Below, piece after piece: positions 18,685-37,072 of a stretch of DNA of 64,000 nt (the first letter of the stretch is position 1; each line of letters starts with the position of its first letter). The notes below the pieces were generated by a model. That model was not told the DNA's origin and made no database searches. It saw nothing but the letters and a program-made list of their open reading frames with translations. The DNA comes from an uncultured Actinomycetes bacterium (GTDB lineage Bacteria > Actinomycetota > Thermoleophilia > Gaiellales > JAICJC01). The position numbers and the translations under genes are program-made. The stretch covers positions 13,255 to 77,254 of the forward strand of contig CAWDUU010000004.1 in the NCBI GenBank assembly GCA_963805545.1, written 5' to 3'.

Positions 18685-18693
18685 TCCCGGTAG

Positions 18694-19899: not shown

Positions 19900-21076
19900 C
19901 GGCCTCCGCGACCAGTTCTGCCGGATGGACGATGCGCAGGTCGGCGCGCCCCAGGCGCCGAAGCGCCGCCTGAAGCTGGACGGCACAGCCGGGGTTGGCG
20001 GTCGCGATCATGTCGGGCTCGGCGGCCAGGATGGCGCGCGCCTTGCGCTCGCCCAGCTCGCGCGCGGTCCGGGGCTGGACGAGGTTGTAGATCCCCGCCG
20101 ACCCGCAGCACGTTCCCGCGTCCTCGATCTCGACGAGCTCGACGCCGGGGATGGCGCGCAGCAGCCCGCGCGGCTGTGCGGCAACGCCCTGGGCGTGGTT
20201 CAGGTGGCAGGCGTCCTGGTAGACGACGCGGGTCGGCTGGAGCGGCCCGCGGGCTGCGACCGGCCCGAGCTCGGCGAGGAGCTCCGTGACGTCGCGTACG
20301 GCCGCGGCGAAGCGGTGCGCCTCCTCCGTCCCGAGCAGCTCGCCGTAGCCCTTCATCGCCGAGCCGCATCCGGCCGCCGTGACGACGATCCGGTCGTGGC
20401 CCGCGAACGCGGCGACCGTCGCGGCCGCCCGCCGGCGCGCCTCCCGCTCGCGGCCCGCATGGAGCGCGAGGGCGCCGCAGCATCCCTGGCGGGGCGGCAC
20501 GACGACCTCGCACCCGTCTGCCGCCAGCGCCTGCGCCGCCGCCCGGTTCACGCGGCCGAAGAGCGCGCGCTGGACGCAGCCCTCGAGCAGGGCGGCCGTC
20601 ATCCGCCGCTCGCCGCGGGCCGGCGTCGTGCGGTCGGGCGCGGCGCGCAGGTCGGCCGGCCGGACGCGCGGGGCGAGCGCAAACGGCCGGATGCCGAGCG
20701 CGAGCGGCCACGAGAGCGCGCGCAGGAGCCGCGGCCTCGGCACCGTGGCGAAGATCGCCGTGTCGAGCGCGCGGGCCCACGGGCTCCGCGGCGCCCGCTC
20801 CCGCCGCTCGGCCCGGGTGCGCTCGATCAGGACGTCGTAGCGGACGCCGCTCGGACAGGCCGGGACGCACGCCATGCAGCCCAGGCAGCGGTCGAAGTGG
20901 CGCGCCGCGGACGGGCCCCACTCCAGCTCGCCGCTCTCCAGAAGCGACATGAGGTGGATGCGGCCGCGGGGCGAGTCGGACTCGTCGCCCCACAGCCCGT
21001 ACGTCGGGCATGCCGGAAGGCAGAACCCGCAGTGGACGCAGGTGTCGAGCAGCTCCCGGGTCGAGGCCTCAGCCAC
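19877..21076 (-). CDS. glcF: Glycolate oxidase iron-sulfur subunit
   Basis: CVHCGFCLPACP and CLGCMACVPACP ferredoxin motifs, two CCG domains, YQDACHL. Confidence 0.85.
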   Translation of the reverse strand: MAEASTRELLDTCVHCGFCLPACPTYGLWGDESDSPRGRIHLMSLLESGELEWGPSAARHFDRCLGCMACVPACPSGVRYDVLIERTRAERRERAPRSPWARALDTAIFATVPRPRLLRALSWPLALGIRPFALAPRVRPADLRAAPDRTTPARGERRMTAALLEGCVQRALFGRVNRAAAQALAADGCEVVVPPRQGCCGALALHAGREREARRRAAATVAAFAGHDRIVVTAAGCGSAMKGYGELLGTEEAHRFAAAVRDVTELLAELGPVAARGPLQPTRVVYQDACHLNHAQGVAAQPRGLLRAIPGVELVEIEDAGTCCGSAGIYNLVQPRTARELGERKARAILAAEPDMIATANPGCAVQLQAALRRLGRADLRIVHPAELVAEAVTPAPAA

Positions 21077-21836
21077 CGAACGCCTCGATTACCCGCTGCT
21101 CGAGCTGCAACACAGGGGCCTGGCCCCGTTGTTGCACGTCGGCGTGGAGGAGGCCGCGGGCCAGGCGGCCGACGATGCGCGTCGCGCCCGCCGTGCGCAG
21201 GTCGTCGATCGCCGCGGGGACGCCGGCGGGGAGCGAGCGGTGGGCGGGCAGGCCGGCGGCCAGCTCCCGGTGCCCGGCCCAGAGCTCCTCGTCGTCCACA
21301 ACGATCTCGCCGCCGACCAGCGCCTGGGCCTGCTGGGCGAGCTCGGCCGCGGCCGGGCTCTCGAAGCGGACGAGCATGTGGCCCGGCGGCCAGGCGTACT
21401 CGACGCAGGCCGGAGCGAGCGGCTCAAGCACGAGCGGGTCGCAGGGATCGGCCACGACCGTGCATGTCGCCGCCGGCAGCGGATGGAGGCGAACGCAGAC
21501 GCGCTCGATCGATCCCAGCCGCCCTTCGGAGCCGACGACGAGCCGCGGCAGGTCGTACCCGGCGACGTTCTTCACCACGCGGCCGCCGCCGTGGACGACC
21601 GAGCCGTCGCCGAGCCGGAGCGCCACCCCGAGCAGCAGGTCGCGGGGCGGGCCGTAGCCGTGGGAGCGCGGTCCCGTCACGGCCGCCGAGAACGCGTCGG
21701 CGACGGCCAGGCGCTCGGCCCCCGGCGGGTCGAGGGCCAGCATCTGGCCCCGCTCGGCCAGCGTCCCGCCCAGGTCGCCCAGGGTGACCGCGCCGCCGAC
21801 GACCGCGGTCAGGTCGCCGGGCTCATGCTCGATCAG
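21069..21836 (-). CDS. glcE: Glycolate oxidase FAD-binding subunit (probable CTG start)
   Basis: EHEPGDLTAVV, RDLLLG, GGRVVKNVAGYDLPRLVVGSEGRLG; no canonical start at the expected N-terminus, CTGA overlap with glcD stop. Confidence 0.75.
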   Translation of the reverse strand: MIEHEPGDLTAVVGGAVTLGDLGGTLAERGQMLALDPPGAERLAVADAFSAAVTGPRSHGYGPPRDLLLGVALRLGDGSVVHGGGRVVKNVAGYDLPRLVVGSEGRLGSIERVCVRLHPLPAATCTVVADPCDPLVLEPLAPACVEYAWPPGHMLVRFESPAAAELAQQAQALVGGEIVVDDEELWAGHRELAAGLPAHRSLPAGVPAAIDDLRTAGATRIVGRLARGLLHADVQQRGQAPVLQLEQRVIEAFGG

Positions 21837-23266
21837 AAGCGTTCCGCCACCCCCTCGCGCTCCAGCGGATGGCGCCGGTACGGCCCCGGCACCTCGCCGC
21901 AGAGCCGGGGCGTCGGCAGGAGCTTCCCCGGGTTGCAGAGCCCCTCCGGATCGAACGCCGCGCGCAGCCTGCCCATCGCCGCGAGGTCGCCCTCCGAGAA
22001 CATCCACGGCATCGAGCACACCTTGTCGACGCCGATCCCGTGCTCGCCGGTGAGCGATCCGCCCGCCTCGACGCACGCCTCGAGGATCTCGGCGGCCAGC
22101 TTCTCGGCCCGCTCCGCCTCGCCCTCGACGGCCGCGTCGTAGAGCACCAGCGGGTGCAGGTTGCCGTCGCCGGCGTGGAAGACGTTCCCCACGCGCAGGC
22201 CGTACCGGCCGGAGAGCTCCGCGATCCGGCGCAGCGTCTGCGGCAGGCGCGTGCGCGGGACGACGCCGTCCTGCACGTAGTAGTCGGGGCTCACCCGGCC
22301 CATCGCGGCGAAGGCGGCCTTGCGCCCGTACCAGAGCGTGGCCCGCTCGCGGTCGTCGCCGGCCACCCGCACCTCGGAGGCCCCGCCCGCCGCGCACAGC
22401 TCCTCGACCCGCCCCAGGCTGAGCGCGACCTCGGCCGCCGGGCCGTCGAGCTCGACGAGCAGCACGGCCCCGGCGTCGCGCGGCAGCCCCGCGTGGACGG
22501 CGTCCTCGGCGGCCTGGATCGTGAGCGCGTCCATCATCTCGACGGCCGCGGGGACGATGCCGGCGCCGATGATCGCCGAGACGACCTCGCCGGCGGCGTC
22601 GGTCGACGGGAACGCGGCGAGCAGGGTCTCGACCCGCTGCGGCCGCGGGACCACCCGGACGACGATCTCGGTTGCGATCCCGAGCGTGCCCTCCGACCCG
22701 ACGAAGACCCCGGCCAGGTCGAGCCCGTCGTCGCGGCCGAGCCGCACGGCCTCGCCGTCGGCCAGCACGACCAGGAGCTCGAGCACGTGGGTCGAGGTGA
22801 AGCCGTACTTGAGGCAGTGCGCACCGCCCGAGTTCTCGGCCACGTTGCCGCCGATCGTGCACACCTGCTGGCTCGAGGGGTCGGGCGCGTAGAAGAGGCC
22901 GTGGGCGGCGACCGCGCGGGTCACGTCGAGGTTCGTGACCCCCGGCTGCACGCGCACCCGCCGGTTGGGGACGTCCACATCCAGCACGCGGTTCATCCGG
23001 GCGAGGCCGATCACGATGCCCTCCGCGACCGGCACCGCGCCGCCGGAGAGGCCGGTGCCCGCCCCCCGGGCGACGAACGGGGCCCCGTGCCCGCGGCATA
23101 CCCGGACGGCCGCCTGCACCTCCTCGGTGGTGCGAGGCAGGACGACGGCCTGCGGCACGGCCCGGTGGCCCGTCAGGCCGTCGCATTCGTACGTCCGCAG
23201 CTCGGCCGGCTCCGAGACGACGGCGTCCGAGCCGAGCGCGCGCTCCAGGTCGGCGACCAGGGTCAC
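21833..23266 (-). CDS. glcD: Glycolate oxidase FAD-linked subunit
   Basis: RGAGTGLSGGA, PDPSSQQVCTIGGNVAENSGG, FHAGDGNLHP, GEHGIG, LCNPGK. Confidence 0.9.
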   Translation of the reverse strand: MTLVADLERALGSDAVVSEPAELRTYECDGLTGHRAVPQAVVLPRTTEEVQAAVRVCRGHGAPFVARGAGTGLSGGAVPVAEGIVIGLARMNRVLDVDVPNRRVRVQPGVTNLDVTRAVAAHGLFYAPDPSSQQVCTIGGNVAENSGGAHCLKYGFTSTHVLELLVVLADGEAVRLGRDDGLDLAGVFVGSEGTLGIATEIVVRVVPRPQRVETLLAAFPSTDAAGEVVSAIIGAGIVPAAVEMMDALTIQAAEDAVHAGLPRDAGAVLLVELDGPAAEVALSLGRVEELCAAGGASEVRVAGDDRERATLWYGRKAAFAAMGRVSPDYYVQDGVVPRTRLPQTLRRIAELSGRYGLRVGNVFHAGDGNLHPLVLYDAAVEGEAERAEKLAAEILEACVEAGGSLTGEHGIGVDKVCSMPWMFSEGDLAAMGRLRAAFDPEGLCNPGKLLPTPRLCGEVPGPYRRHPLEREGVAERF

Positions 23267-23275
23267 GCGCTCAGA

Positions 23276-24445
23276 CTAGAGCAGCGTGTCGCCGACGTAC
23301 CCGCCGGCCCGGCAGCCGGGCGGCACCGCGAAGACCGCGCTTCCGGTGTGGACGAGGTACTCGCCCAGGAGGTCGTGCTCGGCGAGCCGGTGCTGGATCG
23401 GGACGAACTGGCGGCGCGGGTCGCGCTGGAACGCGGCGAAGAAGAGGCCGGCGTCGAGCTTCCCGCCGGGCATGAGCCCGTCGTCGAACGAGTAGCCGCG
23501 GCGCAGGATCCGCTCGGCCTCGCTGCCCGCGGCGCGCGGGTTGGCCAGCATGATGTGGCTGTGGCGCGGCTCAAGCGCCGGCACGACCGGCGTGAACTCC
23601 GAGCGGGCGCCGAACGGCGCGCCCGACACCTTGCGCCGGCCGACGTCGGTCTCCTGCTCGTCCAGGTCGCTCGCGTCCCAGCGCTCGATGCGGATGCGGA
23701 TGCGGCGGGTGACCAGGTAGGTGCCGCCCCGCATCCACGCCGGCTCGTCGCCGCTTGCGACCCACACGTTGCGGCGCATCGCGGCGGCGTCGGAGGCGTC
23801 GAGGTTGTTGGTCCCGTCCTTGAAGCCCATCAGGTTCCGGCCGGTGCGGCCGTCCGGGGCGGAGTCGAACCCCGCCTGCGACCAGCGCCCCGCCGCGACG
23901 CCGCGCCCGATTCGCGCGAGCGTGCGGACGGCATGGAACGCGACCTGCGGGTCGTCGGCGCAGGCCTGCACGGCGAGGTCTCCGCCGCTCCGGGCCGCAT
24001 CGAGCCGGTCGCCGCGGAACGCGGGCAGGGCGGCGAGCGCCGCCGGCCGCTCGGCCCGCAGGCCGAACCGGCCGTCGAAGAGCGACGGCCCGAGCCCGAT
24101 CGTCACCGTGAGGCGCGACGCCGGAAGGCCGTACGCCTCGCCCGTGTCAACCGGAGCCGAGGCCGGGTCGCCGCCGACAGGGCCGACGGGATCGCCGGCG
24201 CACATCCGCGCGGCGGCGTCCGACCAGGCGCGCAGGAGCGCCGCGAGATCCGCCCGCGACCCGGAGACGTCGAAGGCCGCAAACCGCAGGTGCGCCTGGA
24301 GCGGCGTCGTGATGCCGCCCTGGTGGCGGCCGTGGAACGGGAGGCGCGCGCCCCGGGAGGCACCGGCGGCCGGCGTCGTTCCGGCGATCACACCGCCGGC
24401 GGCCAAGCCGGCGCTCGCGAGCAACCTTCGTCGCGTCGTGCCCAC
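23276..24445 (-). CDS. Tat-exported Dyp-type (EfeB-like) heme peroxidase
   Basis: TRRRLL Tat signal, GFKDGT, HSH...ILRRGYSF, FAAFQRD. Confidence 0.88.
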   Translation of the reverse strand: MGTTRRRLLASAGLAAGGVIAGTTPAAGASRGARLPFHGRHQGGITTPLQAHLRFAAFDVSGSRADLAALLRAWSDAAARMCAGDPVGPVGGDPASAPVDTGEAYGLPASRLTVTIGLGPSLFDGRFGLRAERPAALAALPAFRGDRLDAARSGGDLAVQACADDPQVAFHAVRTLARIGRGVAAGRWSQAGFDSAPDGRTGRNLMGFKDGTNNLDASDAAAMRRNVWVASGDEPAWMRGGTYLVTRRIRIRIERWDASDLDEQETDVGRRKVSGAPFGARSEFTPVVPALEPRHSHIMLANPRAAGSEAERILRRGYSFDDGLMPGGKLDAGLFFAAFQRDPRRQFVPIQHRLAEHDLLGEYLVHTGSAVFAVPPGCRAGGYVGDTLL

Positions 24446-24454
24446 GCGCAGACT

Positions 24455-26986
24455 TTACGCCATCAGCTGCTTCATGACCATCTGGAGCAGGCCGCCGTCG
24501 CGGTACACCTTGACGTCGGCCGGCGCGTCGAGCCGGGCGAGGCACGTGAACGAGCGCGCGCCGCCGTCCACCTCGACCGTGACATGCGAGCCGACGTCGA
24601 GCTCGGCCAGCCCGCGGATGGTGTACGTCTCGGTGCCGTCGAGCCCGAGGCTCGCGGCCGACTCACCCTCGGCGAACTGGAGCGGGATCACCCCGAGCGC
24701 GACCAGGTTCGAGCGGTGGATGCGCTCGTAGCTCTCGGCGATCACAGCCCGCACGCCGAGCAGCGCCGAGCCCTTGGCGGCCCAGTCGCGGGAGCTGCCC
24801 GAGCCGTACTCGCGGCCGGCGATGACGACCAGCGGCACGCCCTCGGCGCGGTAGCGCTCGGCGGCGTCGTAGATCGTCGTTTCCTCGCCCGACGGCAGGT
24901 GGCGGGTGAAGCCGCCCTCGCGCTCGACGAGCGCGTTTCGCAGCCGGATGTTCGCGAACGTGCCCCGCACCATCACCTCGTGGTTTCCGCGCCGGGCGCC
25001 GTAGGAGTTGAAGTCGCGCGGCTCGACGCCGTGCTCGACCAGCCACCGCCCGGCCGGCGTCCCGGGCGCGAACGCCCCGGCCGGCGAGATGTGGTCGGTC
25101 GTGACCGAGTCGCCGAGGAGCGCGAGGACGCGCGCATCCACGATGTCCGACAGGTCGGCGTCGTGCGCGAAGAAGGCCGCCTCGCGCACGTAGGTCGAGT
25201 CCGGGTCCCAGGCGTAGAGCTCGCCCTCGGGCACCGGCAGGCCACGCCACCGCTCGTCGCCCTCGAAGATGCGGCCGTACTCGTCGGTGAAGAGGTCGGG
25301 CGAGAACGACGCGGCCAGGGCGTCGCTCACCTCGTCCGCGGTCGGCCACACGTCGCGCAGGAAGACCGGCCCGTCGGTGCCCTCGCCGAGCGGCTCGGTG
25401 GTGAGGTCGGCGTTCACCGTACCGGCGAGCGCATAGGCCACCACGAGTGGCGGCGACGCGAGGTAGTTGGCGCGCACCGCCGGGTGGATGCGGGCTTCGA
25501 AGTTGCGGTTCCCCGAGAGCACGGCGGCGACCTTCAGGTCGTCGCGCTCGATGGCGCCGGCCACCTCGTCGGGCAGCGGGCCCGAGTTCCCGATGCAGGT
25601 CGTGCACCCGAACCCGACCAGGTTGAAGCCGAGCGCCTCGAGCGGCTCCATGAGCGCAGCCTTGCGCAGGTAGCCGATCACGACGCGCGAGCCCGGAGCC
25701 AGGCTGGTCTTCACCCAGGGCTTCGTCGTGAGGCCGCGCTCGACCGCCTTTCGGGCCACCAGGCCCGCGGCGATCATGAGCGCGGGATTCGACGTGTTCG
25801 TGCACGAGGTGATCGCCGAGATCACCACCGACCCGTCGCCGAGGCCGGCGCCGTTCCGGCCGGCCCCGAACGCGTCGGCGAAGCTGTCGCCCACGCGCGG
25901 TAGCGGCACCCGGTCCTGCGGCCGGCGGGGGCCGGCCAGGCTCGGCTCGACGGCCGAGAGGTCGAAGTCGAGCGTCTCGGTGTAGGCCGGCTCGGCCTCG
26001 GAGCCGGTGTGGAAGAGGCCCTGCTCCTTCGTGTAGCGCTCGACCAGCTCGACGTGCTCGGGCGCGCGGCCGGTGTCGCGCAGGTAGCGCAGCGTCTCGC
26101 CGTCGACCGGGAAGGTCGAGGCGGTGGCCCCGAACTCCGGCGACATGTTCGAGATCGTGGCCCGGTCGGCCACGGTCAGCGAGCCGAGGCCGGGTCCGAA
26201 GAACTCGATGAACTTGCCGACCACGCCGTGCTTTCGCAGCCGCTCGGTCATCGTGAGCACGAGGTCGGTGGCCGTGACACCGCTCTGGAGCGCGCCCGAG
26301 AGCCGCACGCCGACCACCTGGGGGGCGGTCATGTAGATCGGCTGGCCGAGCATCACGGCCTCGGCCTCGATGCCGCCGACACCCCAGCCGAGCACGCCGA
26401 GCGCGTTGATCATCGTCGTGTGCGAGTCGGTTCCCACCAGCGTGTCGGGCATCGCGACCCCGTCGCGCACCGTCACGACGGAGCCCAGGTACTCCAGGTT
26501 CACCTGGTGGACGATCCCCATCCCCGGAGGGACGACCCGGAAGTTCCCGAACGCGCCCTGGGCCCAGCGCAGGAGCGCGTAGCGCTCGCCGTTCCGCGCG
26601 TACTCGTGCTCGATGTTGCGCTCGTAGGCGGCGCCGTTTCCGAACGCGTCCACCTGCACCGAGTGGTCGATCACGAGGTCGACCGGCACCTGCGGGTCGA
26701 CGCGGGACGGGTCGCCGCCGCGGCGCGCGACCGCCGAGCGGAGCGCGGCCAGGTCGACGACGGCCGGGACGCCGGTCAGGTCCTGCATGATCACCCGGGC
26801 GGGCATGAACGCGAGCTGTGCGCCCTCGGCCGGCGCCGGCCAGTTGGCAAGCGCCTGGACGTCCGCGTCGGTCACGTGCTCGGTCCCCCGGCGGCGCACC
26901 AGGTTCTCGAGGAGGATGCAGACGGTGTAGGGCAGCCGTGACGGGTCCGCCACTGAGTCGATGCGATGGATCACCTCGTCCGCCAC
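24455..26986 (-). CDS. acnA: Aconitate hydratase A
   Basis: [53 protein letters not shown]; TAGGCT 7 nt before GTG. Confidence 0.95.
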
Positions 26987-27009
26987 GCCCCGCAGCCTAG
27001 CCGCGGGGA

Positions 27010-28440
27010 CTACTTCAATACGCTGCGGAGCGCCGCCTGCGCCGCGTACCAGCCGCACATCCCGTGGACGCCGCCGCCCGGGGGCGTCGAGGACGAGCAG
27101 AGGAAGATGCCGGGGTCGGGGGTCGCGTGCGGCACGGGCCGAAGCGCGGGCCGGGCCAGGAGCTGGCGCAGGTCGGCGAGGCCGCCGTTGATGTCGCCAC
27201 CGACGTAGTTCGGGTTCTTCGCCTCGACGTCCGCCGGACCCATCGTGTGCCGCGCCGCGACCACGTCGCGGAAGCCGGGCGCGAACCGCTCGATCTGGCG
27301 CTCGATCGCCGCGGTCATGTCGGCATCGGAGCCGTTCGGAACGTGGCAGTACGCCCACAGCGTGTGCGACCCGGCCGGAGCGCGGGCCGGGTCGAAGAGG
27401 CTCGGCTGGGCGACGAGGACGTAGGGCCTCGCCGGCGTCCGGCCCGCCGCCACCTGGGCCTCCGACGCGGCCAGCTCGGCCATGGTGCCGCCGACGTGCA
27501 CGGTGCCGGCCCGGCGGCAGCCCTCCGCCGTCCACGGCACCGGCTCGTGCAGCGCGTAATCCACCTTGAAGACGCCCGGCCCGTACCGGAACCGCTCGAG
27601 CGCGCGCCGGTAGCGCCCCGAGAAGCGCCCGTCCGCGATCCGGAGCAGCGCCCGCGGCGTCACGTCGAGCAGCACGGCCCGGGCCGGCGGCAGCTCCCGC
27701 AGCGACGTGACGGGGCGGCCGGTCTCGATCTCGCCGCCCAGCGCGCGAAGGAGCGACGCCATGGAGCCGGAGACGGCGCGCGACCCGCCGGCGGCGACTG
27801 GCCAGCCGACGGCGTGCGCGAGCATGACGAGCAGGAGCGCGAACGCCCCCGTCCCGGGTGCCGTGAGCGGCCGCATCGAGTGGGCGGCGTTCCCGGCCAG
27901 GAGCGCTCGGGCCGGGTCGCCGCCGAAGCGGCGCCGGGTGAGGCCCGAGACGGAGCGCAGGCCGAGCGCGGCGAACCGGGCCGCCGGCAGCGGGTGGCGC
28001 GGAGGACGCAGCGGGGGTCCGAGCAGGAGGCCCGCCAGCTCGTCCCAGTCGCGGACGAGCGGGCCCAGCAGCCGCTCGTAGGCGCGGCCGTCGGCGCCCA
28101 GGCCCGCGGCCGTCTCGGCCAGCGAGCGGTGCAGCGCCACCGCCCGGCCGCCGTCGAGCGGGTGCGCCAGCGGCAGGTCGGGGTGGACGACCTCCAGGCC
28201 GTGCTCGGCGAGCGGCAGCGACGAGAGGAACGGCGAACCCAGCAGCAGCGGATGGACAGCCGAGCAGACGTCGTGCAGGTGGCCCGGGAGCGTGAGCTCC
28301 TCGGTGCGGGTGCCGCCTCCGATCGTGGCCTCTCCCTCGATCACCCGCACCGACCGCCCGGCCTGCGCGAGCGCGATCGCCGCGGCCAGGCCGTTCGGCC
28401 CCGATCCGACGACGATCGCGTCGAGCGCTTCCTCAGGCAC
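27010..28440 (-). CDS. Phytoene-dehydrogenase-like NAD(P)/FAD oxidoreductase
   Basis: [49 protein letters not shown]. Confidence 0.88.
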
Positions 28441-29167
28441 GCCGGAACGGCCTGGTCATGAGCCTCATCGGCGCCATGGCCGTGTACATACCCGACCGGA
28501 TCCCCGCGTTGTGCCACACGTTCCCGGCCTTCCCCCACTGGCGGCGGCGGTCGACGCACACCGCCTCGGTGGTCACCTCGCCCTCGACGCCGAACGCCGC
28601 GGCCAGCGACCGGAGCGTGTGCGCCCAGTGGCGGTCCTCCTGGCTGTGGCCGCCGAGGGTCATCCCCATCTCGTAGAGCGGGTCGGACGCCCGCATGAGG
28701 ACGTGCGCCTGGGCGGCCGTCACGCCGCCGTCGTCGAACGCGCTGAAGGTGATCCAGCCGGCGAACATGTGCCCCTCCGGCGTCATGAGCGTGAACGACT
28801 CCTCGTCGGCGTAGAGCACGAGCACGCCGGTCGAGAGCTTGAGCCGGCCCGGCATGGTCAGGTCGAGCACCGCCACCTCGCCGGGCGCGATGCCGGCCAG
28901 CGGCGCGAAGAAGCGGTTGCCCTTCGGCCAGAAGCTGGGGAAGTCGCGCTTCCACACCTCGATGACCTCGGCCGGCCCCACGTCGGCCCCCTCGAGCCGG
29001 ATGCGGTACGTCTTCTGCCACATCCGGCCGAACCCCTGCACCGGCGAGGTCGGGCGGCGCCCGGCCACGTTGATCCCCGACGACCCGGGCTCGACGCCGG
29101 TCACTTCGAGATGGACGACCGGCTTCGCCCAGGCGTCGCCGTCGCGCTGTGCGCGCTCATCGGACAT
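28433..29167 (-). CDS. Hypothetical protein (DUF1990-like fold suspected), last gene of the partner-switching operon
   Basis: Ordered 244-aa ORF (FTLMTPEGHMFAGWITF); operonic position. Confidence 0.6.
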   Translation of the reverse strand: MSDERAQRDGDAWAKPVVHLEVTGVEPGSSGINVAGRRPTSPVQGFGRMWQKTYRIRLEGADVGPAEVIEVWKRDFPSFWPKGNRFFAPLAGIAPGEVAVLDLTMPGRLKLSTGVLVLYADEESFTLMTPEGHMFAGWITFSAFDDGGVTAAQAHVLMRASDPLYEMGMTLGGHSQEDRHWAHTLRSLAAAFGVEGEVTTEAVCVDRRRQWGKAGNVWHNAGIRSGMYTAMAPMRLMTRPFRRA

Positions 29168-29185
29168 GGTCTCGTTCCTTTCTGG

Positions 29186-29539
29186 TCAGGCGGCCGCGGC
29201 GATCGCCTCGGACTCGCTCCCGTGGATCGCGATCGCCTCGTCCAGCCGCGTCAGCTGGAAGATCTGGCGGTAGTGCTCGGTCAGGCCGAACGCCATGAGC
29301 CGCTGCTTCTGGCGGTTGGCGCGAACGAGCAGGGTGACGAGCAGGCCGATCCCGCTCGAGTTCATGTACTCGAGGTCTGAGAAGTTGAGGACGACCCAGC
29401 GGGTGTGGTCGCCGCTGGCGCGCCCGTAGGCGTCCATCAGCACTCCCTCGCTGGCGGCCGTCACCTCGCCGGCGATGTCGATCACGCTCGCGCGGTCGCT
29501 CGGCGTCCGCACCGTCATCGAAACCGTGGTCTCGGTCAT
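29186..29539 (-). CDS. STAS-domain anti-anti-sigma factor
   Basis: LNFSDLEYMNSSGIGLLV phosphorylatable-Ser motif, IFQLTRL. Confidence 0.9.
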   Translation of the reverse strand: MTETTVSMTVRTPSDRASVIDIAGEVTAASEGVLMDAYGRASGDHTRWVVLNFSDLEYMNSSGIGLLVTLLVRANRQKQRLMAFGLTEHYRQIFQLTRLDEAIAIHGSESEAIAAAA

Positions 29540-29883
29540 CTCGTGCTCCCCTCCGGGGCGGGCGCCCCAGCCTCGATGGTCATGAAGTCGGACAGGCGGG
29601 TGATCTCGAAGATCTCCCGGTAGTGGGCGGTGAGGCCGCGGGCCGTCACGGGCACGCCGGCCCCCCGGGCCCGGCCCAGGAGCCCGACGATGAGCGCGAT
29701 GCCGGTCGAATTGATGTACGGCACCGCCGTGAAATCGAGCGTGAGCGACGCGGCGCCGGCGGCTGCCGCCTCGCTGTAGGCCCGGTCGAGGGCCGCCCCG
29801 GCGTCGCGGTCGACGTCGCCGGTCAGCAGAAGCGTCGCAGCGCCGCCGCTCACGTCCACCTTCACCTCAAGCGCGGTCGTCAT
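29536..29883 (-). CDS. STAS-domain anti-anti-sigma factor
   Basis: LDFTAVPYINSTGIALIV, IFEITRL. Confidence 0.9.
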   Translation of the reverse strand: MTTALEVKVDVSGGAATLLLTGDVDRDAGAALDRAYSEAAAAGAASLTLDFTAVPYINSTGIALIVGLLGRARGAGVPVTARGLTAHYREIFEITRLSDFMTIEAGAPAPEGSTR

Positions 29884-31472
29884 CTCGGTCTCCTTCCAGG
29901 CGCATCACGAGCCGGGTGGTGTGGTGCTCGTCGTCGCCGAGCACGTCCAGGTCGTCCACCATGTTCCGGATCAGGAAGAGCCCCCAGCCGCGCGGCGTCT
30001 GCTCGCCGGCGAGCTTGGCGTCGATGTCCGGCTCGGGGGCGTCGGGCATCGGCCGCGCCGAGCCCCGGTCGGTGACATCGACGCGGAGCGCGTCCGCGGT
30101 CGCGGACGAGCCGGATGTCGACCGGCAGCTCGGGCCGGAACCCGTTGCCGTGCTCCATCGCGTTCATGACCGCCTCGGCGACGGCCGTCTTCATCCGCTC
30201 GAGCCGGGCGCCGGACAGGCCGGCCGCCGCGAGCGCCGGCTCGAGCCGGCGGATCGCCTCGCGCTCGTTCCCGGGCTCGCTCGCAACCGAGACCTCGGCC
30301 AGGGCAGCGGCGGGGCCCGCCTCGCGGCGGATCGCGACGAGCGTGATGTCGTCCTCCTGCTCGGCACCGGGCGCGGCGAACGCGCCGAGCGCGGCGATCA
30401 GCGTCCCCAGGAGCGCCTCGCCCGCCCGCCCGCCCGCCTCGGCCATGACGGCCGCCAGGCGGTCGCCGCCGAACATCTGCCGGTCGGCGTCGTGCGCCTC
30501 GGTCACCCCGTCGGAGTAGAGCAGGAGGTGCGCGCCGGGATCGAGGACGGCCTCGGTCTCCTCGTAGGTCATGCCCGGCATGAGCCCGAGCGGCATCCCG
30601 CGCGCCATGTGCTCGGTGACGATGCCCGCGGAGGCCACCATCGGCAGGTTGTGGCCGGCGTTTGCGAACACCAGCCGGCCCGTGTCGAGCTCGAGCACGC
30701 CGTAGAGGCAGGTCACGAACATGTTCTGCGGGATGTCGGGGACGAGGTGCTCGTTCACCCGCTCGAGCACCGCGCCGGGCTCGACCAGTCGCTGGGCTGA
30801 GGCGCGAAGCACGCTCCGCGTGGCGGCCATCACGAGGGCCGCCGGGACGCCCTTGTCGGTCACGTCGCCGACCACGATCCCGAGCCGGCCGTCGGGCAGG
30901 TCGATGAAGTCGTAGAAGTCGCCGCCCACCTCCCGGGCCGGCCGGTAGTCGGCTGCGACGCTCCACCCCGCGGCCTCCGGCAGCGAACGCGGCAGGAAGT
31001 TCTGCTGGATGAGGCGGGCGACGGCGAGCTCCTGCTCGATCCGCTCCCTGCTTCGGATCTCGGCCTCCTGCTCGCGCACGAGCTGGCCGACACGGACGGC
31101 CGGGGCGGCCTGCGCGGCCAGGCTCTCGAGCAGGCGGCGGTCGTCGCCGGAGTACTCCTGGTCGGAGAGCCGCGGCCCGAGGTTGAGAAGCCCGATCAGC
31201 TCGCCCTGGGTCACGAGGGGGACGACCAGCTTCACGCCCGCCGCCCGCATGGCGTCGAGGGCCGGCGACTCGAGCTCGAGCGCCTCGATGTCGACGGCGC
31301 CGGCCGCGCTCTGGAAGAACGGGATGATGGGGTCGTTCGGCGCGATGTCGACCGGCATGGAGCTCGGCGCGAGCGCGCGCGGTGGCGGCTCCTCGGCCAC
31401 CGAGGCGGCGACGGCCGGAGCGATGCGCCCGCGGGAGACGATGCGGCGAAGGCTGTGGGCAACCGAGCTCAT
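29867..31472 (-). CDS. Half-GAF + PP2C/SpoIIE phosphatase + RsbW-like HATPase fusion; apparent frameshift near 30104
   Basis: VPLVTQGELIGLLNLG...LAAQAA, EVGGDFYD, GDVTDKG, YSDGVTEA, DDITL, AVAEAVMNAMEHGN; HATPase C-terminus (RVDVTDRG, GWGLFLIRNMVD) continues in another frame to stop 29867. Confidence 0.85.
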
Positions 31473-32626
31473 GACAGACCCGTTGTACCGGGCGGGCGTT
31501 CCGGGTTCGTTACGGGCCGCAGCCAGACTCCGGCATGGGCCGGCTGCACCGTGCCGGCGATGGTCTGGAGGAGCTCGCCGCACAGCGCGTCGAGGTCGAG
31601 CTGCTCTCGCGCGCGGGCGCTGAACGCGGCCACCGCACCCTGCGCGTCGTACCCCGAGCGGAAGAAGCGCCTGTCCACCGTTCGCTGGATCCGCCGCCGG
31701 AGCGGCTGGAAGGCGGCCGCCACCGCGAGCGTCGAGACCGTGACGGCGACCGTCCCCGACGAGCCCGAGACGGTGCGCAGGAGCGCGCCGACCAGCGTCA
31801 CGCCGCCGAGATAGACGCCCGCGAGCACCGCGACCAGCATCGCGTAGACGAGCGTCTTTCGGATGATCACGTCGACGTCGTAGAGCCGGTAGCGCAGCAT
31901 GGCGAGGCCGACCGAGAGCGGGAGCAGCGCGTAATCGAGCGCGTACAGGGCCTCGCGGGGCGAGACGATCGAGATCACAAAGAAGCCCACGAAGGCGGCA
32001 CAGGCCGCGAAGACGCACTCGCGGATCTGGAGGCGCTGGGTCGCCGCGGCGCGCCGGTAGCGAAGGACCGCCGAGGCCAGGCCCGCCGCGATCAGGGCGG
32101 CGACGAGCACCCCGGTCGCGACGACGAGCGGCTGCGGAGGCGAGCCGGAGACGCCCGCGAACGCCGCGATCCACACGATCGCGGCGATGTCGGCGCGGAG
32201 AAGCAGCCGCCATCGCGGCCCCGGCGGCCGGCCGTCCGGGAAGAGCAGCGGGACCAGGAGCGCGTACGCGGCGAGCCCGGACACCCATGTCCAGCTGGAG
32301 AGCCAGTCGGCGACGGCCGCGCCGGGTGCCCCGCTCGGGTGCCTGTCGCCCGCCCACCCGGCGTAGACGCCGGTCGAGACGGCGACCGCGACCAGCACCG
32401 GGGCGGCGCAGAAGATCCATCCGATCGGATTCCGCGGCTCGCGGCGTGCGATCAGGACGCCCAGCGTGGCCATTCCCTGCATCACCGCGCCGAAGAGCAG
32501 GGCATCGAGGACGTTTGCGACGGCCAGGCCGGCCTCCGTGCCGACGAAGATGCCGGTGGCCAGGAGCAGGCCAAGCGTCGCGAACCAGGCCGCCGCCGCG
32601 AGCCGCGGCGTGGAGCGGCCGCTCAC
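31469..32626 (-). CDS. Stand-alone multi-TM sensor-like protein ending in truncated GAF-like segment (paralog B)
   Basis: NPIGW, FPDGRPPGPRWR, RYRLYDVDVIIRKTLVY, REQLDLDALCGEL...AGVWLRP; ATGA overlap with phosphatase gene. Confidence 0.75.
   Translation of the reverse strand: MSGRSTPRLAAAAWFATLGLLLATGIFVGTEAGLAVANVLDALLFGAVMQGMATLGVLIARREPRNPIGWIFCAAPVLVAVAVSTGVYAGWAGDRHPSGAPGAAVADWLSSWTWVSGLAAYALLVPLLFPDGRPPGPRWRLLLRADIAAIVWIAAFAGVSGSPPQPLVVATGVLVAALIAAGLASAVLRYRRAAATQRLQIRECVFAACAAFVGFFVISIVSPREALYALDYALLPLSVGLAMLRYRLYDVDVIIRKTLVYAMLVAVLAGVYLGGVTLVGALLRTVSGSSGTVAVTVSTLAVAAAFQPLRRRIQRTVDRRFFRSGYDAQGAVAAFSARAREQLDLDALCGELLQTIAGTVQPAHAGVWLRPVTNPERPPGTTGLS
31482..31513 (-). promoter_or_regulatory. 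Direct-repeat operator GTAACG-N5-GGAACG plus -10-like TACAAC, site B, inside the 3' end of paralog B
   Basis: CGTAACGAACCCGGAACGCCCGC matches site A CGTAACGATCCCGGAACGCCCGC at 22/23; 9 nt before phosphatase ATG. Confidence 0.65.
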
Positions 32627-33864
32627 CGTCCCGCCTCCGGCAACCGCAGCCAGAGCGAGACGTGCGCCGGCTGGAGCGTCTCGCGGACGACGTCGAGCAC
32701 CTCGCCGCTCACGGTCTCGATGTCCACCTGCTCCCGCAGCCGCCCGCTGAACGACTCAAGCGTGCGGGCCGCGTCGTAGCGGCCGCGGTAGAAGCGGTGG
32801 TCGACCGCCCGCTGGATGCGCACCCGGAGGGGCTGAAACGCCGCGGCGACCGCCAGGGTCGAGACCGTGACGCCGATCGCGCCCGACCCACCCGTGATGC
32901 TCCGCAGGGCGCCCCCGACCAGGGTCACGCCACCGAGATACAGCGTCGCCAGAACCGCGACGAGCACCGCGTAGACCAGCGTCCGCCTGATGATGACGTC
33001 GATCTCGTAGAGGCGGTAGCGGAGCACCGCGAACACGATCGCGATCGGTATCAGCGCGAAGCTGAGCAGCGCGAACGTCTGGGCGGCGACGAGCCAGCCG
33101 GGCGGATCCTGCGCCGACGGATCGAGCAGCGGAGAGAGCGGCTCGACGACGGCATAGGTGGAGGCCACCGCGGCCGCCGCCGCGGCCAGCCATTTCAACT
33201 GCTGGCGCTGGGCGCCTCGTGCGCCGCGGAAGCGTACGACCAGGCTCGCGGCCGACGCCACCATCATCGCGGGAACGACCAGGATCGAGAGTCTGGCGGC
33301 ATCGAGCACCGATCGCAGGGAGTCGATTCCGGCGGGGTTCCGGACGTGCGGGTATCCGGCGTCGCTGAGCGGCCCGGGGGCGAACGTCACGCAGAGGAGG
33401 CCGACCACGATCGCCGCGGCGCTCGTCCATGCCACGTACCGCCAGCGCCGGCCCGGGAGATGGCCGTCGGGGAAGAGGAGTATCAGGAACGTCCCGGTAA
33501 GCCCGACGGCCGGCAGCCAGAATCCCTCGCCCACGACCGCGACGGCGATGGCGCCGGGAAGGTCGTGGTGCAGCTTGATCGCGTAGTCGGAGTAGGACGT
33601 GCCGAGCGCCAGCCCCCACGCCACTCCGATCGCGAGCAGGAGCCAGCCGATCGGGTTCTCCGGCCGGCGAGCGGCCAGGAGCCAGCCCGCGGCGGGGTAG
33701 GTGAACATCGCGAGGACGAAGGCGATCCCCGCCCAGGCCCCGCCGCCGGACCAGCTGCCGGACTGCACGGCGTCGCGGGCCAGGACGCCGAAGACCACGG
33801 AGAACGCGCACATCGCGGCGCACACCGCGAAGATGGCCGTCGCCAGGCTGCGCCGGGCCCTCAC
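32623..33864 (-). CDS. Stand-alone multi-TM sensor-like protein ending in truncated GAF-like segment (paralog C)
   Basis: NPIGW, FPDGHLPGRRWR, QQLKW, RYRLYEIDVIIRRTLVY, REQVDIETVSGEV...VSLWLR; GGAGG RBS before GTG 33864 (alternative ATG 33945). Confidence 0.75.
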   Translation of the reverse strand: MRARRSLATAIFAVCAAMCAFSVVFGVLARDAVQSGSWSGGGAWAGIAFVLAMFTYPAAGWLLAARRPENPIGWLLLAIGVAWGLALGTSYSDYAIKLHHDLPGAIAVAVVGEGFWLPAVGLTGTFLILLFPDGHLPGRRWRYVAWTSAAAIVVGLLCVTFAPGPLSDAGYPHVRNPAGIDSLRSVLDAARLSILVVPAMMVASAASLVVRFRGARGAQRQQLKWLAAAAAAVASTYAVVEPLSPLLDPSAQDPPGWLVAAQTFALLSFALIPIAIVFAVLRYRLYEIDVIIRRTLVYAVLVAVLATLYLGGVTLVGGALRSITGGSGAIGVTVSTLAVAAAFQPLRVRIQRAVDHRFYRGRYDAARTLESFSGRLREQVDIETVSGEVLDVVRETLQPAHVSLWLRLPEAGR

Positions 33865-33986
33865 CGCTCCGCCTCCGGCGAGGTCGGCCGGGGCGGCGCG
33901 ACGGATGACCGGCTGGCGTTCGGGCAGCTCATCGACGTTCAGCATCTTCCATCTCGGCCACGGGGGCAACACGCTGCATTGGCCGA

Positions 33987-34018
33987 ATCCTCGCCCGCCA
34001 CCGTCCTGGGAACGTTAC
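33987..34018 (-). promoter_or_regulatory. Direct-repeat operator GTAACG-N5-AGGACG plus -10 GAGGAT, site C, in the divergent region next to the SARP gene
   Basis: Same repeat spacing and 9-nt gap to the -10 as site B; overlapping GGAACG repeats on the plus strand. Confidence 0.55.
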
Positions 34019-34067
34019 GGAACGAGCGGCACCCGACTCGATCGTCACGCTCTGCCATACTCGCCCC

Positions 34068-36788
34068 ATGGCGCTTCGCATCGACGTGCTCGGGACGCCC
34101 CGCATCGAGGTGGACCGCGAGCCGCTGCGCGTCGACACGCGCAAGGCGGTCGCGCTGCTCGCGTATCTGTCGGTGACCGGCGGCCCGCAGGCGCGCGAGC
34201 TGCTCGTCGACCTGCTCTGGCCCGACACCGATCCCGACCGCGGAAGGGCGGCGCTGCGACGCACGCTCTCGGCGCTGCGCTCGGCGCTCGGCGGGCGCTG
34301 GGTCACGGTCAGCCGGGCGGCGGTGGGTCTCGACATCGAGCCGGGCGCGGTGGACGTCGACCGCTTCCGCGCCCTCGTCGCCGCGGCCGGGAACGGGCCG
34401 GGAGCCGTGAAACCGCTCTCGGACGCGGTCGCGCTTCACCGCGGCGACCTCCTGGCCGGCTTCGGGCTGCGTGACAGCGTCCGCTTCGACGACTGGCAGC
34501 GCGACACGGCGGCGGAGCTGCGGACCGAGCTCGAGCGCGCGCTCGACCGGCTCGTGGCGGCGATCGAGGCGAGCGGCCGGCCGGACGACGCCATCCCCCA
34601 CGCCCGGCGCCGGCTGGGCCTCGATCCGCTGCACGAGCCGGCGCACCGGACGCTCATCCGCCTCTGCGCCGGGAGCGGCCACCGGGCGGAGGCGCTCAGC
34701 CAGTACCGGGAGTGCGTGCGCGTGCTCGACCGCGAGCTCGGCGTCCGGCCGCTGGCCGAGACGACCGACCTCTACAACGCCGTGAACGAGGGCCGGATCC
34801 TCGTTGCAGACCCGCCCGTGCCCGCCGCGGAGCCCGTCACGCCGCAGGTGGCCGCCCGGCCGCTGGTCGGGCGGGAGCGGGAGTGGCGGGCGCTTCTCGC
34901 CGAGCACGGGGCATGCGTGACGGACGGCCGGCTCGTCGTCATCGAGGGGGAGGCGGGCGTCGGCAAGACCCGGCTCGGCGAGGAGCTGGCGGCGGCCGCC
35001 CGCGCGGGCGGGACCGTCGCCGCCGTCGCCCGGTCCTACGAGGGCGAGTCCGGGATCGCGTTCGGGCTCGTGGCGGCCGCGCTGCGGGCCGCGCTCGAGG
35101 CGGCCGGCGAGGAGCCGCTGACGGCCGTCCCCCCGCACTGGCGAGCCGAGGCCGCCCGGCTCGTGCCGGAGATCGGCGGCGGCGAGGCTCCGGCCGTCGC
35201 GGACAGCGCCGCCGCCCAGCAGCGGCTGTCAGAGGGGCTCGCCCACGTCCTGGCGGCGCTCGTCGCCGACCGGCCGCCCGGGCTCCTCTTCCTGGACGAC
35301 CTGCACTCCGCCGACCCTGCGTCGCTCGCGATGGTGGGCTACCTCGTCCGCCGGCTTGCCGGGCGGCCGATGCTCGTCGCCGCCGCGTGGCGCTCCGAGG
35401 AGATCGGCCCCGACCACAACGTCCTGCGGCGCTCGGCCGATCGCGTGATCCGGCTCGGCCGGCTGACCCGCGCCGACGTCGCCGAGCTGGCCGCCGCCGC
35501 GGGGATGGCCGCGCGCGCACCCGAGCTCTTCGACGAGACGGAGGGGCTGCCGCTCTTCGTCGTCGAGTACCTGGCGGCGCTCCGCGACCCCGCGCAGGAC
35601 GGCGGGCTTCCGGTCGGCGTCCGCGAGCTCCTCGCGGCGCGGCTGGACGGGATCGGCGAGACCTCGGCGCAGCTCCTCAGCGCAGCGGCGGTGATCGGGC
35701 GCACGTTCGACGTCGACACCGTGCGCGCGGCCGCAGGCAGGGGCGAGGACGAGACCGCGGCCGGCCTGGAGGAGCTCACCAGGCGGGGCCTCCTCGTCGA
35801 GCGCGACGCGGGGTACGAGTTCTCGCACGACAAGCTCCTCGCCGTGGCCTACGAGCGCGCCGGGCTGGCCCGGCGCCGGCTGCTTCATCGCCGTGTCGCC
35901 GAGACGCTCACGGCCGGGCACGCCGACCCCGCGCTCGTCGCCCGCCACCTCCTGGCCGCCGGGCTGGAAGCGGATGCGGCCGAGGCCTTCCGCCGGGCGG
36001 GCGACCGCGCGCGCGGTGTCTACGCCCACCGGGAGGCGCTCGACGCGTACCGCTCCGCCATCGGCCTGGGGCACGAGCAACCGGCGCTCCTGCACGAGGC
36101 GATCGGCGACCTGCACACGCTCCGGGGCGAGTACGCGGCGGCGCTCTCGGCCTACGAGGCGGCGGCCGCACTCGGCGAGCCGGACGCCGTCGCCGGGATC
36201 GAGCACAAGCTCGGCAGGGTGCACGACCGCCGTGGCGACCCCGAGCTCGCCGACGTGCACCTGCTCGAGGCGCTCCGGCTCGGCGGCGAGTCGGCACGCG
36301 TCCAGGCCGACCGCAGCCTGGCGGCCCACCGCCGCGGCGACGCCGCCGCCGCGGCCGAGCTCGCCCGCAGGTCGCTCGAGCTCGGCGAGGCGGCGAACGA
36401 TCCGGAGGCCGTGGCCCGGGCGTGCAACATCCTCGGGATGCTGACCGGGTCGCGCGAGCACCTGGAGCGCAGCGTCGAGCTGGCCGGGTCGCTGCCCGAC
36501 CGAACCGTGCTCGTGGCCGCGCTCAACAACCTCGCGCTCGCATGCGGCCGGACGGGCGAGACGGACGCCGCCATCGAGCACACGACCCGCGCGCTCGACC
36601 TCTGCTCCGAGCAGGGCGACCGCCACCGGGAGGCGGCCCTGCACAACAACCTGGCCGACCTCTTGCACCGGGCCGGCCGGGAGGGCGAGTCGATGGAGCA
36701 GCTGAAGCGGGCCGTTGCGATCTTCGCCGAGGTCGGCGCCGGCGACGCCGGCATGCAGCCCGAGGTGTGGAAGCTGGTGGAATGGTGA
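34068..36788 (+). CDS. AfsR/SARP-type regulator: wHTH-BTAD + AAA ATPase + TPR
   Basis: LLAYL, LLWPD, GDLLAGF...FDDW, LDPLHEPAHRTLI, GEAGVGKTRL P-loop, LDDLH, TPRs; CATACT 6 nt before ATG. Confidence 0.9.
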   Translation: MALRIDVLGTPRIEVDREPLRVDTRKAVALLAYLSVTGGPQARELLVDLLWPDTDPDRGRAALRRTLSALRSALGGRWVTVSRAAVGLDIEPGAVDVDRFRALVAAAGNGPGAVKPLSDAVALHRGDLLAGFGLRDSVRFDDWQRDTAAELRTELERALDRLVAAIEASGRPDDAIPHARRRLGLDPLHEPAHRTLIRLCAGSGHRAEALSQYRECVRVLDRELGVRPLAETTDLYNAVNEGRILVADPPVPAAEPVTPQVAARPLVGREREWRALLAEHGACVTDGRLVVIEGEAGVGKTRLGEELAAAARAGGTVAAVARSYEGESGIAFGLVAAALRAALEAAGEEPLTAVPPHWRAEAARLVPEIGGGEAPAVADSAAAQQRLSEGLAHVLAALVADRPPGLLFLDDLHSADPASLAMVGYLVRRLAGRPMLVAAAWRSEEIGPDHNVLRRSADRVIRLGRLTRADVAELAAAAGMAARAPELFDETEGLPLFVVEYLAALRDPAQDGGLPVGVRELLAARLDGIGETSAQLLSAAAVIGRTFDVDTVRAAAGRGEDETAAGLEELTRRGLLVERDAGYEFSHDKLLAVAYERAGLARRRLLHRRVAETLTAGHADPALVARHLLAAGLEADAAEAFRRAGDRARGVYAHREALDAYRSAIGLGHEQPALLHEAIGDLHTLRGEYAAALSAYEAAAALGEPDAVAGIEHKLGRVHDRRGDPELADVHLLEALRLGGESARVQADRSLAAHRRGDAAAAAELARRSLELGEAANDPEAVARACNILGMLTGSREHLERSVELAGSLPDRTVLVAALNNLALACGRTGETDAAIEHTTRALDLCSEQGDRHREAALHNNLADLLHRAGREGESMEQLKRAVAIFAEVGAGDAGMQPEVWKLVEW

Positions 36789-37072
36789 ACGGCTCGCGCG
36801 TGCCCCTTCCGCCCGAGGTGGAGGCGCCGTTCGAGGTGTACGTGAACGGCCTGCTTCAGACCGAGGGCGCCGACTTCGTGCTCGACGGGCGCGAGCTGGT
36901 CTTCGCGGCCGAGCTGGCGCCGCCGGCCCGCGACACGGCCAGGAGCCTCTTCCGGGGGTTCTTCTTCGGCCGCTACAAGCCCGAGCACGTGGTCGACGTC
37001 GCCTACCAGGCCGGCGGGCGCGGCCACGTCGTGAGCGGGCTTCCGATCAGGCGGCCGGAAGCCGCTAGATGA
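36782..37072 (+). CDS. Small hypothetical protein
   Basis: Ordered ORF (FEVYVNGLLQTEGADF) overlapping the SARP stop. Confidence 0.6.
   Translation: MVNGSRVPLPPEVEAPFEVYVNGLLQTEGADFVLDGRELVFAAELAPPARDTARSLFRGFFFGRYKPEHVVDVAYQAGGRGHVVSGLPIRRPEAAR

Follow-up and report, generated by a model that had tools for sequence, protein, structure and literature searches.

A GAF domain divided between truncated membrane sensors and a PP2C phosphatase-kinase in Thermoleophilia and beyond

The stretch considered here, 64,000 nucleotides of contig CAWDUU010000004.1 (positions 13,255 to 77,254) from an uncultured Actinomycetes bacterium of the Gaiellales and referred to throughout as the window, carries genes for truncated membrane sensors and for a soluble phosphatase-kinase that share a single GAF domain, of which the sensor tail is the start (helix alpha1 and strand beta1) and the phosphatase N-terminus the remainder. 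As traced through related genomes, this division of the domain between two genes is evidently old, conserved and widespread, and no artefact. The interpretation that we tend to favour, with some reserve, is that the sensor tail would dock in trans on the phosphatase and complete its part-GAF in a module of the partner-switching type. Already known are membrane-sensor-GAF-PP2C proteins, fusions of PP2C with RsbW, partner switching through STAS proteins and promoters of the SARP type; no description could be found of a GAF domain that is split between two genes in nature and conserved in this state, or of arrays in which several sensors can each supply the part that is missing. A full-text literature search for split GAF domains returned only engineered phytochrome reporters and unrelated papers.

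Gene layout

The genes of the module are listed below, with coordinates in the window unless another contig is named. All genes at the site lie on the minus strand except sensor C.

32623 to 33972, minus strand: sensor A, truncated multi-transmembrane sensor, start at 33972 or 33945, tail at 32644-32727
31469 to 32626, minus strand: sensor B, truncated multi-transmembrane sensor, GAF alpha1-beta1 tail (LDLDALCGELLQTIAGTVQPAHAGVWLR) at 31517-31600
29867 to 31472, minus strand: phosphatase-kinase gene (end of the assembled open reading frame at 29880; frame-corrected stop at 29867)
31350 to 31472, minus strand: leader of the phosphatase-kinase, residues 1-41
31083 to 31349, minus strand: part-GAF core and start of the linker helix
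to about 30903, minus strand: linker helix
30324 to 30896, minus strand: SpoIIE/PP2C domain
30094 to 30100, minus strand: one extra base, frameshift in the kinase domain
29867 to 30284, minus strand: HATPase_c_2 domain
29536 to 29883, minus strand: STAS gene 1, RsbV-like, NSTG motif (PF13466, E 4e-12)
29186 to 29539, minus strand: STAS gene 2, RsbV-like, NSSG motif (PF01740, E 9e-12)
18694 to 19899, plus strand: sensor C, stand-alone truncated multi-transmembrane sensor, GAF alpha1-beta1 tail at 19798-19881
contig C3, about 501884 to 503110: sensor D, fourth paralogue, ending ...QPASAGLWIRDDPPDRS before the stop

The stop of sensor A overlaps the GTG start of sensor B as GTGA, and the TGA of sensor B overlaps the phosphatase ATG (31472) as the ATGA at 31469-31472 that had been reported in the original prediction. 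Of the limits given there, 29867 is the stop of the frame-corrected phosphatase gene, and the start of sensor A lies beyond the upper one, 33864. The whole genome holds one phosphatase of the part-GAF type along with sensors A, B, C and D. A second half-GAF partner was sought in the genome and none was found; three GAF domains, all of them complete, are encoded by the SpoIIE gene of contig C12.

Sensor tails and the part-GAF core

Each sensor has about 8-10 hydrophobic segments by hydropathy, and a Pfam scan of the sensors gave no match. The observation that the two tandem sensors and the paralogue at 18694-19899 stop after a QPxHxxVWLR element stood and now extends to sensor D, all four ending 5-15 residues past ...QPxHxxVWLR (C-terminal ends before the stop: sensor A, ...QPAHVSLWLRLPEAGR; sensor B, ...QPAHAGVWLRPVTNPERPPGTTGLS; sensor C, ...QPRHASVWLRPPEQA). 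In 157 of 162 distinct tails from related loci (97%) the pattern P-x(4-6)-W-[LIVM] is kept and the open reading frame ends a median of 6 residues later, so that the truncation point is not due to chance. When 1.84 billion representative proteins were searched with sensor B, 3,824 hits (representative clusters) were obtained at E <= 1e-30, and nearly all of the top 150 are 375-440 residues long with the same endpoint. Three long hits, P0129 (929 residues), P0142 (954 residues) and P0205 (630 residues), were considered as GAF fusions and rejected, each being two truncated sensors in tandem with a ...WLR tail on each unit. The existence of such tandems means that the tail need not precede the rest of a GAF domain; it also suggests that the sensors act as pairs or dimers, and a 2:2 complex in which the phosphatase is dimeric too would, as a speculation, be in keeping with this.

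Pfam recognizes in the phosphatase only the C-terminal part of a GAF domain, over residues 66-126 (GAF_2, profile positions 91-135 of 136; GAF_3, 69-127 of 129). Against PF01590, PF13185 and PF13492 the phosphatase N-terminus alone covers only profile positions 69-135 and has no complete sheet, whereas the sensor tail and the N-terminus taken together match a whole profile and, as a read-through model, adopt the GAF fold. With the window sequences themselves, a chimera of tail and phosphatase N-terminus matched positions 1-132 of PF01590 at 38.4 bits, as compared with positions 78-132 at 32.4 bits for the N-terminus alone.

That transmembrane-GAF-PP2C fusions would contain both pieces as the start and end of one GAF domain was correctly anticipated. 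Such proteins were found only with a padded chimeric query, proteins of about 530 residues being excluded by length, and comprise P0272 (919 residues, annotated 'SpoIIE family protein phosphatase', from an Actinomycetota metagenome-assembled genome, MAG), P0284, P0356 and P0275, the last with an inserted PAS domain. All carry the sensor membrane domain, tail, core, PP2C and RsbW-like kinase domains with about 50% identity across the junction, the Pfam GAF models match profile positions 1-132 from the tail helix on, and proteins of the P0272 type display the same tail motif (QPARVSVWLR) and the same core (DIAPNDP...GELIGLLNLGPRLS...). In these single polypeptides 11-24 residues separate the WLR that closes beta1 from DIAPNDP, whereas in the window the two pieces belong to two genes, with a predicted promoter and a 41-residue leader between them. 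In a maximum-likelihood tree of the core-PP2C region the fused forms occupy at least three separate positions inside the split clade, so the genes have been joined repeatedly at the same junction, and repeated fusion at the tail-core junction is a classic sign that the products act together. By these comparisons one GAF domain begins in the sensor tail and is continued by the N-terminus of the phosphatase.

For the phosphatase alone, window residues 1-153 were modelled with AlphaFold2 from an alignment with 63 orthologues. The leader was disordered, and the core formed a helix, a short strand, a helix, a hairpin and a long helix at a predicted local distance difference test (pLDDT) score of 84-96 over residues 41-153, the linker helix spanning residues 109-152. 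As a natural single-chain proxy for tail and core together, use was made of the in-frame sensor-stop-phosphatase chains found in Kribbella as well as in seven further lineages: the read-through chain from Kribbella sp. VKM Ac-2569 (tail, stop, leader, core and linker helix) was modelled with AlphaFold2 from an alignment of split-type sequences only (A5). In this model the tail helix (residues 49-64) and strand (69-73, VSLWL) have pLDDT values of 85-93 and the core of 90-96, and residues 79-124, from the tail extension through the leader, are disordered. Strand pairing was read from DSSP strings and Foldseek coverage, and as the tail strand is the only one in the read-through model that lies outside the core, its partner must be the core sheet. 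The residues of the putative interface between tail and core are close to invariant.

In Foldseek searches GAF structures were the best matches of the phosphatase alone, yet over 72-96 columns with template modelling (TM) scores of 0.32-0.42; the read-through chain matched GAF structures over about 200 columns with TM-scores of 0.58-0.67 to single GAF structures (5w10_B, 0.32 for the phosphatase alone versus 0.60 for the read-through chain; 2vzw_A, 0.42 versus 0.58). From both models, therefore, the phosphatase is without a complete GAF and the leader is no stand-in for the missing piece; the leader had been considered as a built-in alpha1-beta1 substitute and was rejected, as it is disordered both alone and in the read-through chain. 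The original prediction had named three outcomes that would speak against it: a complete GAF fold of the phosphatase N-terminus alone, no predicted inter-chain sheet, and one continuous open reading frame. None of the three checks refuted it: the N-terminus was modelled as a part-GAF only, the tail strand was modelled inside the core sheet of the read-through chain, and the two open reading frames stay separate (see below). What holds of that prediction is thus the split itself, which is stable and supported by fused homologues and the chimera; the docking of sensors is a step further, as the chain that was folded is a single-chain proxy.

Stability and spread of the gene split

At least 583 stretches of GTDB species genomes encode relatives, of which the best 80 loci were taken and 79 could be analysed. 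They come from Gaiellales, Solirubrobacterales, Thermoleophilaceae, Kribbella isolates, Nocardioides, Marmoricola, Ktedonobacterales and Limnocylindria, and thus span Thermoleophilia, Actinomycetes (including three Kribbella isolates) and Chloroflexota. Fused genes are found in none of the 79; a sensor abuts the phosphatase in 35, one small gene intervenes in 27, the sensor lies farther off in 3, and 14 have no sensor within 4 kb. The N-terminal 190 residues of the phosphatase are covered in full by more than 100 orthologues (528-545 residues, 67-96% identity), so that the start and the leader are conserved. At 68-69% identity the gene order is still kept, namely divergent AfsR-like regulator, sensor(s), phosphatase-kinase, STAS, STAS and a 245-residue protein.

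At the junction itself, a metagenome contig of a 92%-identical strain covers 31330-31516 with zero indels and the ATGA retained, and an identical metagenome contig covers 31291-31476. Contigs and relatives alike keep two open reading frames, rather than the single continuous one that would have pointed to a recent break. In 10 of the 35 abutting loci the phosphatase continues the frame of the last sensor after one TAG or TAA; in L029, L034, L047 (Kribbella), L055, L062, L069, L074 and L080 a single in-frame TAG or TAA is followed by AAAGG and then ATG.

Genomic association of sensors and phosphatase

The survey of co-occurrence that had been called for was made on a class-wide sample of 121 genomes. 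The part-GAF phosphatase is present in 3, and truncated sensors are confined to the same 3, with 4-6 in each (3/3 phosphatase-bearing genomes versus 0/118 others). Eight other genomes gave weak sensor hits, which correspond to one long transmembrane-GAF-like-HisKA_3 kinase or a remnant in each. Five further genomes have exactly one part-GAF phosphatase apiece, and in the three Kribbella isolates 4-7 tandem sensors lie directly upstream of the phosphatase, all high-scoring truncated sensors being part of the array. The earlier proposal of interchangeable sensors fits the 2-7 sensors per phosphatase, the strict co-occurrence and the shared operator described below.

The sensors match weakly the stretch of the PrsK profile (TIGR02916, positions 182-348) that leads from its membrane domain into its GAF domain. 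PrsK and the actinobacterial transmembrane-GAF-like-HisKA_3 kinases (L086 is an example from this class) have the same polytopic domain and juxtamembrane helices running into the start of a GAF, and, unlike in the sensors, the GAF-like domain in them is whole and is accompanied by a histidine kinase; the sensor scores of 18.1 and 28.2 bits are far under the curated PrsK cutoff of 300 bits.

The phosphatase-kinase and its leader

The predicted succession of part-GAF, PP2C and RsbW-like domains followed by two STAS genes was recovered; DIAPNDP does not open the protein as had been thought, being preceded by the 41-residue leader (MSSVAHSLRRIVSRGR...). The SpoIIE/PP2C profile (PF07228) is matched in full by residues 193-383 (profile positions 1-191 of 192, E 7e-54), and the predicted metal-binding residues D185, D188, D203, D206, D321, D374 and D375 are invariant in 12 orthologues; by its full profile and conserved aspartates the protein is thus assigned as a PP2C/SpoIIE phosphatase. 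PF01740 and PF13466 match both STAS genes, and each has a phosphorylatable serine motif (YINSTGIA and YMNSSGIG), as expected of RsbV-like proteins.

Residues 397-472 match HATPase_c_2 (PF13581) at profile positions 2-77 of 127, after which the frame shifts and the remainder lies in another frame: at about 30094-30100, '...PVDIRLVRD' resumes as 'ADALRVDVTDRGS...RLEGDRDDDRA' and ends at 29867. In the fused homologue P0272 the same profile is matched over positions 6-125. In contigs of related strains one base is missing at 30094/30098, and the 1-bp frameshift is probably an assembly indel; alternatively, it may be a real strain-specific lesion. In L020, a relative of the same MAG series, the gene carries a different frameshift elsewhere.

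Residues 1-16 of the leader (31427-31472) and of its orthologues form a conserved basic peptide, M-x-x-L-T-R-x-F-R-R-x-L-x-R-R, after which comes a variable Ala/Pro/Glu-rich spacer, and MAFFT repeatedly placed this peptide on the juxtamembrane FxPLRRRIQ segment of the sensors. Contact with the membrane and contact with a sensor are both possibilities for it.

SARP-type operators and an internal promoter

Operator-like sites precede sensors A, C and D and the phosphatase, and a large regulator is encoded next to the module:

18651 to 18668, plus strand: SARP-type operator CGTAACG-ATCC-CGGAACG, upstream of sensor C, the top genome-wide hit of the position weight matrix (29.8 bits)
31482 to 31514, minus strand: predicted internal phosphatase promoter, with operator CGTAACG-AACC-CGGAACG at 31497-31514 and a -10-like TACAAC at 31482-31487
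34002 to 34019, minus strand: SARP-type operator CGTAACG-TTCC-CAGGACG, upstream of sensor A (25.8 bits)
contig C3, about 503142, minus strand: operator CGTAACG-GTGC-CGTAACC, upstream of sensor D
34068 to 36788, plus strand: AfsR-like large SARP regulator (BTAD, AAA_16/NOD and TPR domains), divergent, with the same synteny in L001 and L002

In a weight-matrix scan of the whole genome (3.86 Mb) the operators before sensor C, the phosphatase and sensor A rank first, at 25.8-29.8 bits, the next hit scoring 17.6. The common layout is that of two heptamer repeats with an 11-bp period, 8-10 nucleotides, a TA-rich hexamer, a further 7-10 nucleotides and the start codon; before sensor C the operator is followed by GATACT and then the ATG, and TACAAC lies 9 nucleotides before the phosphatase ATG. 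This layout agrees with the published rule for SARP-dependent promoters (PMC10936776), and together with the neighbouring BTAD/AAA_16/TPR regulator it leads to the prediction that the sites are promoters of this class. Compared with the SARP/AfsR-dependent promoters of Streptomyces (PMC10936776), those described here would control a signalling module, not antibiotic genes, and one copy lies within a coding region.

The site at 31497-31514, CGTAACG-N4-C(C/G)GGA(A)CG, is conserved across phyla in whichever sensor frame it is read (RNDSRT in Kribbella, VTNPER in Gaiellales). In about 70 of 83 loci, with or without an abutting sensor, it stands about 25-45 nucleotides ahead of the phosphatase start, and the operator also precedes the first sensors of arrays. 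On this evidence the phosphatase probably has its own promoter inside the last codons of sensor B, giving a near-leaderless transcript, and the non-conserved last 15 residues of sensor B (VTNPER...) are this promoter translated. Since the promoter lies there, the ATGA overlap need not mean translational coupling and is probably incidental; the coupling originally read into it calls for revision, the predicted SARP-type promoter being present even without an abutting sensor. The junction element was also considered as an RNA motif or recoding signal and rejected: Rfam gave no match above family thresholds, and the element is found before sensors A, C and D and before phosphatases without an abutting sensor as well. 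The AfsR-like regulator (34068-36788) probably binds the operators and co-activates all units, and the sites before sensors A, C and D and the phosphatase, the only strong ones of the genome, would define a small regulon of this protein, through which sensors C and D, though they stand alone, would be linked with the phosphatase.

Proposed mechanism and alternatives

From the split, the fused homologues and the co-occurrence we infer docking in trans and a signal path towards an output. The cytoplasmic end of each sensor consists of a juxtamembrane helix, a second helix and then the GAF alpha1-beta1 element (...QPxHxxVWLR), and the phosphatase-kinase of the basic peptide, a disordered spacer of about 25 residues and the rest of the GAF (alpha2, short strand, alpha3, beta hairpin and alpha5), the last helix of which extends as a linker into PP2C, followed by the RsbW-like kinase domain. 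The tail strand would enter the sheet that is left open in the part-GAF; in the fused homologues it takes this place as part of the same chain. Completion of the domain would tether the phosphatase to the membrane, and the state of the sensor would pass through the linker helix to PP2C, which, with the kinase domain, would set the phosphorylation of both STAS proteins. The paralogous sensors, four here and up to seven elsewhere, may share one socket as alternative or combined inputs. A stronger version, in which up to seven sensors compete or combine for a single GAF socket and domain completion is itself the signalling event, is put forward tentatively, as a conjecture about which we are somewhat doubtful.

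Several observations weigh against docking. With 4-7 sensors per phosphatase most tails would be unpaired at any moment; 14 of the 79 loci have no sensor within 4 kb of the phosphatase, and in G081 the phosphatase has no abutting sensor, the nearest being about 5 kb downstream. The kinase domain is frameshifted in this assembly, and a sigma factor or other output target is not encoded nearby. The tandem proteins P0129, P0142 and P0205 mean that a tail can precede another sensor, and tails might pair together. Finally, tail and core are joined through a natural linker into one chain in the read-through model, and the priors of AlphaFold2 may by themselves complete a familiar fold.

Some of these points recur if the split is real and no docking in trans takes place, the tails being an oligomerization element of the sensors and the part-GAF a vestigial dimerization element or linker cap that works alone, with sensors and phosphatase linked by shared regulation or by an indirect signal. 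Tandem sensor fusions with a tail on each unit, the excess of sensors over phosphatases (4-7 to 1), phosphatases that are sometimes not next to a sensor and the confident AlphaFold2 model of the core alone (pLDDT 84-96, residues 41-153) would all be accommodated, and the shared SARP operator could by itself account for the co-occurrence. This explanation is nevertheless considered rather unlikely, as against it stand at least three fusions exactly at the tail-core junction, each restoring a full-length GAF, the retention of the beta1 motif in 97% of tails, the strict co-occurrence (3/3 versus 0/118 genomes) and a core that alone forms an open two-strand sheet matching about half a GAF.

Covalent completion of the GAF in some molecules, by stop read-through or -1 frameshifting between sensor and phosphatase, is suggested by the 10 of 35 abutting loci that are in frame with a single TAG or TAA between and by the phosphatase frame of the window, which is open far upstream of the ATG. 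It is very improbable: the ratio of same to other frame, 10:25, is that of chance, in some Gaiellales relatives (L001, L009) the phosphatase frame is interrupted by a TAG shortly ahead of the ATG, the promoter found also before sensors and before phosphatases without an abutting sensor explains the conservation of the junction, and Rfam gave no match above its family thresholds. Hardly any weight can be given to the notion that sensor B and the phosphatase were once one gene, broken by a recent frameshift or assembly error; the 1-bp indel in the kinase domain of the same gene and the separate frameshift of L020, from the same MAG series, would lend it some colour, but the start and leader are common to more than 100 orthologues and to isolate genomes, the endpoint recurs in sensors A, C and D as well as in 157 of the 162 related tails, and the contigs of other strains have no indel at the junction.

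Should docking in trans be correct, the module would be a case of natural, conserved fragment complementation in bacterial signal transduction in two phyla, cultured Kribbella included, offering a simple way for one output to be served by many sensors and a model, taken from nature, of how the completion of a domain can regulate, and it would explain a very large unannotated family of membrane proteins of about 400 residues. Sensory domains are usually treated as indivisible, and what is commonly asked is how signals travel between the domains of one protein. Here a membrane protein and a soluble enzyme each hold part of a GAF domain, in an arrangement stable across two phyla and with several alternative donors of the missing part. 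The phosphatase is routinely labelled as a GAF protein and the sensors receive no label, which should serve as a warning for annotation. As cultured Kribbella carry the module, it is directly testable.

Relation to known systems

The RsbU/RsbV/RsbW system of Bacillus subtilis is likewise built from a PP2C phosphatase, a kinase of the RsbW type and STAS proteins as substrates. The window differs in having phosphatase and kinase within one protein and no sigma factor gene close by, and the proposed input is a membrane sensor that would supply part of the regulatory domain, as opposed to the binding of RsbT. A regulatory N-terminal domain joined to PP2C by a long helix is also a feature of the linker coiled-coil model of activation of PP2C phosphatases (PMC12143880), and the path suggested here from sensor through linker helix to PP2C would follow what has been proposed for RsbU-type phosphatases.

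A PP2C domain and an RsbW-like kinase also share one actinobacterial polypeptide in the window and in Rv1364c. The latter is a multidomain PAS-PP2C-RsbW-STAS protein of Mycobacterium tuberculosis; its PAS sensor is complete and its STAS domain belongs to the same chain, in contrast with the incomplete sensor domain and separate STAS proteins of the window. In the donor-strand complementation of chaperone-usher pili and in engineered split proteins, a strand of one chain completes the sheet of another. The likeness of the exchange proposed here to these is one of analogy only, with no homology.

Neighbouring genes and minor observations

The G+C content of the window is 73%, so that most of the open reading frames listed for it are spurious. 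Sensor C is convergent with a glcF-like gene and is without a downstream partner. No sigma factor gene was found in the operon or in the examined flanks (about 27000-37000 and 18600-26000); L001 has a sigma-70 family gene 3 kb downstream, and L002 does not.

Among the loci with a gene between the sensors and the phosphatase, L011 (3351-3938), L014 (3378-3938) and L023 (3357-3914) encode, after the last sensor, a bare class III nucleotide cyclase domain (185-195 residues, PF00211) that is without a sensor domain of its own. In L017 (3550-3990), L024 (3444-3890) and L028 (3511-3963) the position is taken by an SRPBCC/polyketide-cyclase-like protein (146-150 residues, PF10604), the gene of which has its own copy of the operator.

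One further gene of the window is syntenic with the module, downstream of the STAS genes:

28433 to 29167, minus strand: conserved protein of 244 residues, with no Pfam match

Pfam and NCBIfam scans of this protein gave no match. Its gene always follows the second STAS gene in L001 and L002, and the protein could be part of the output.

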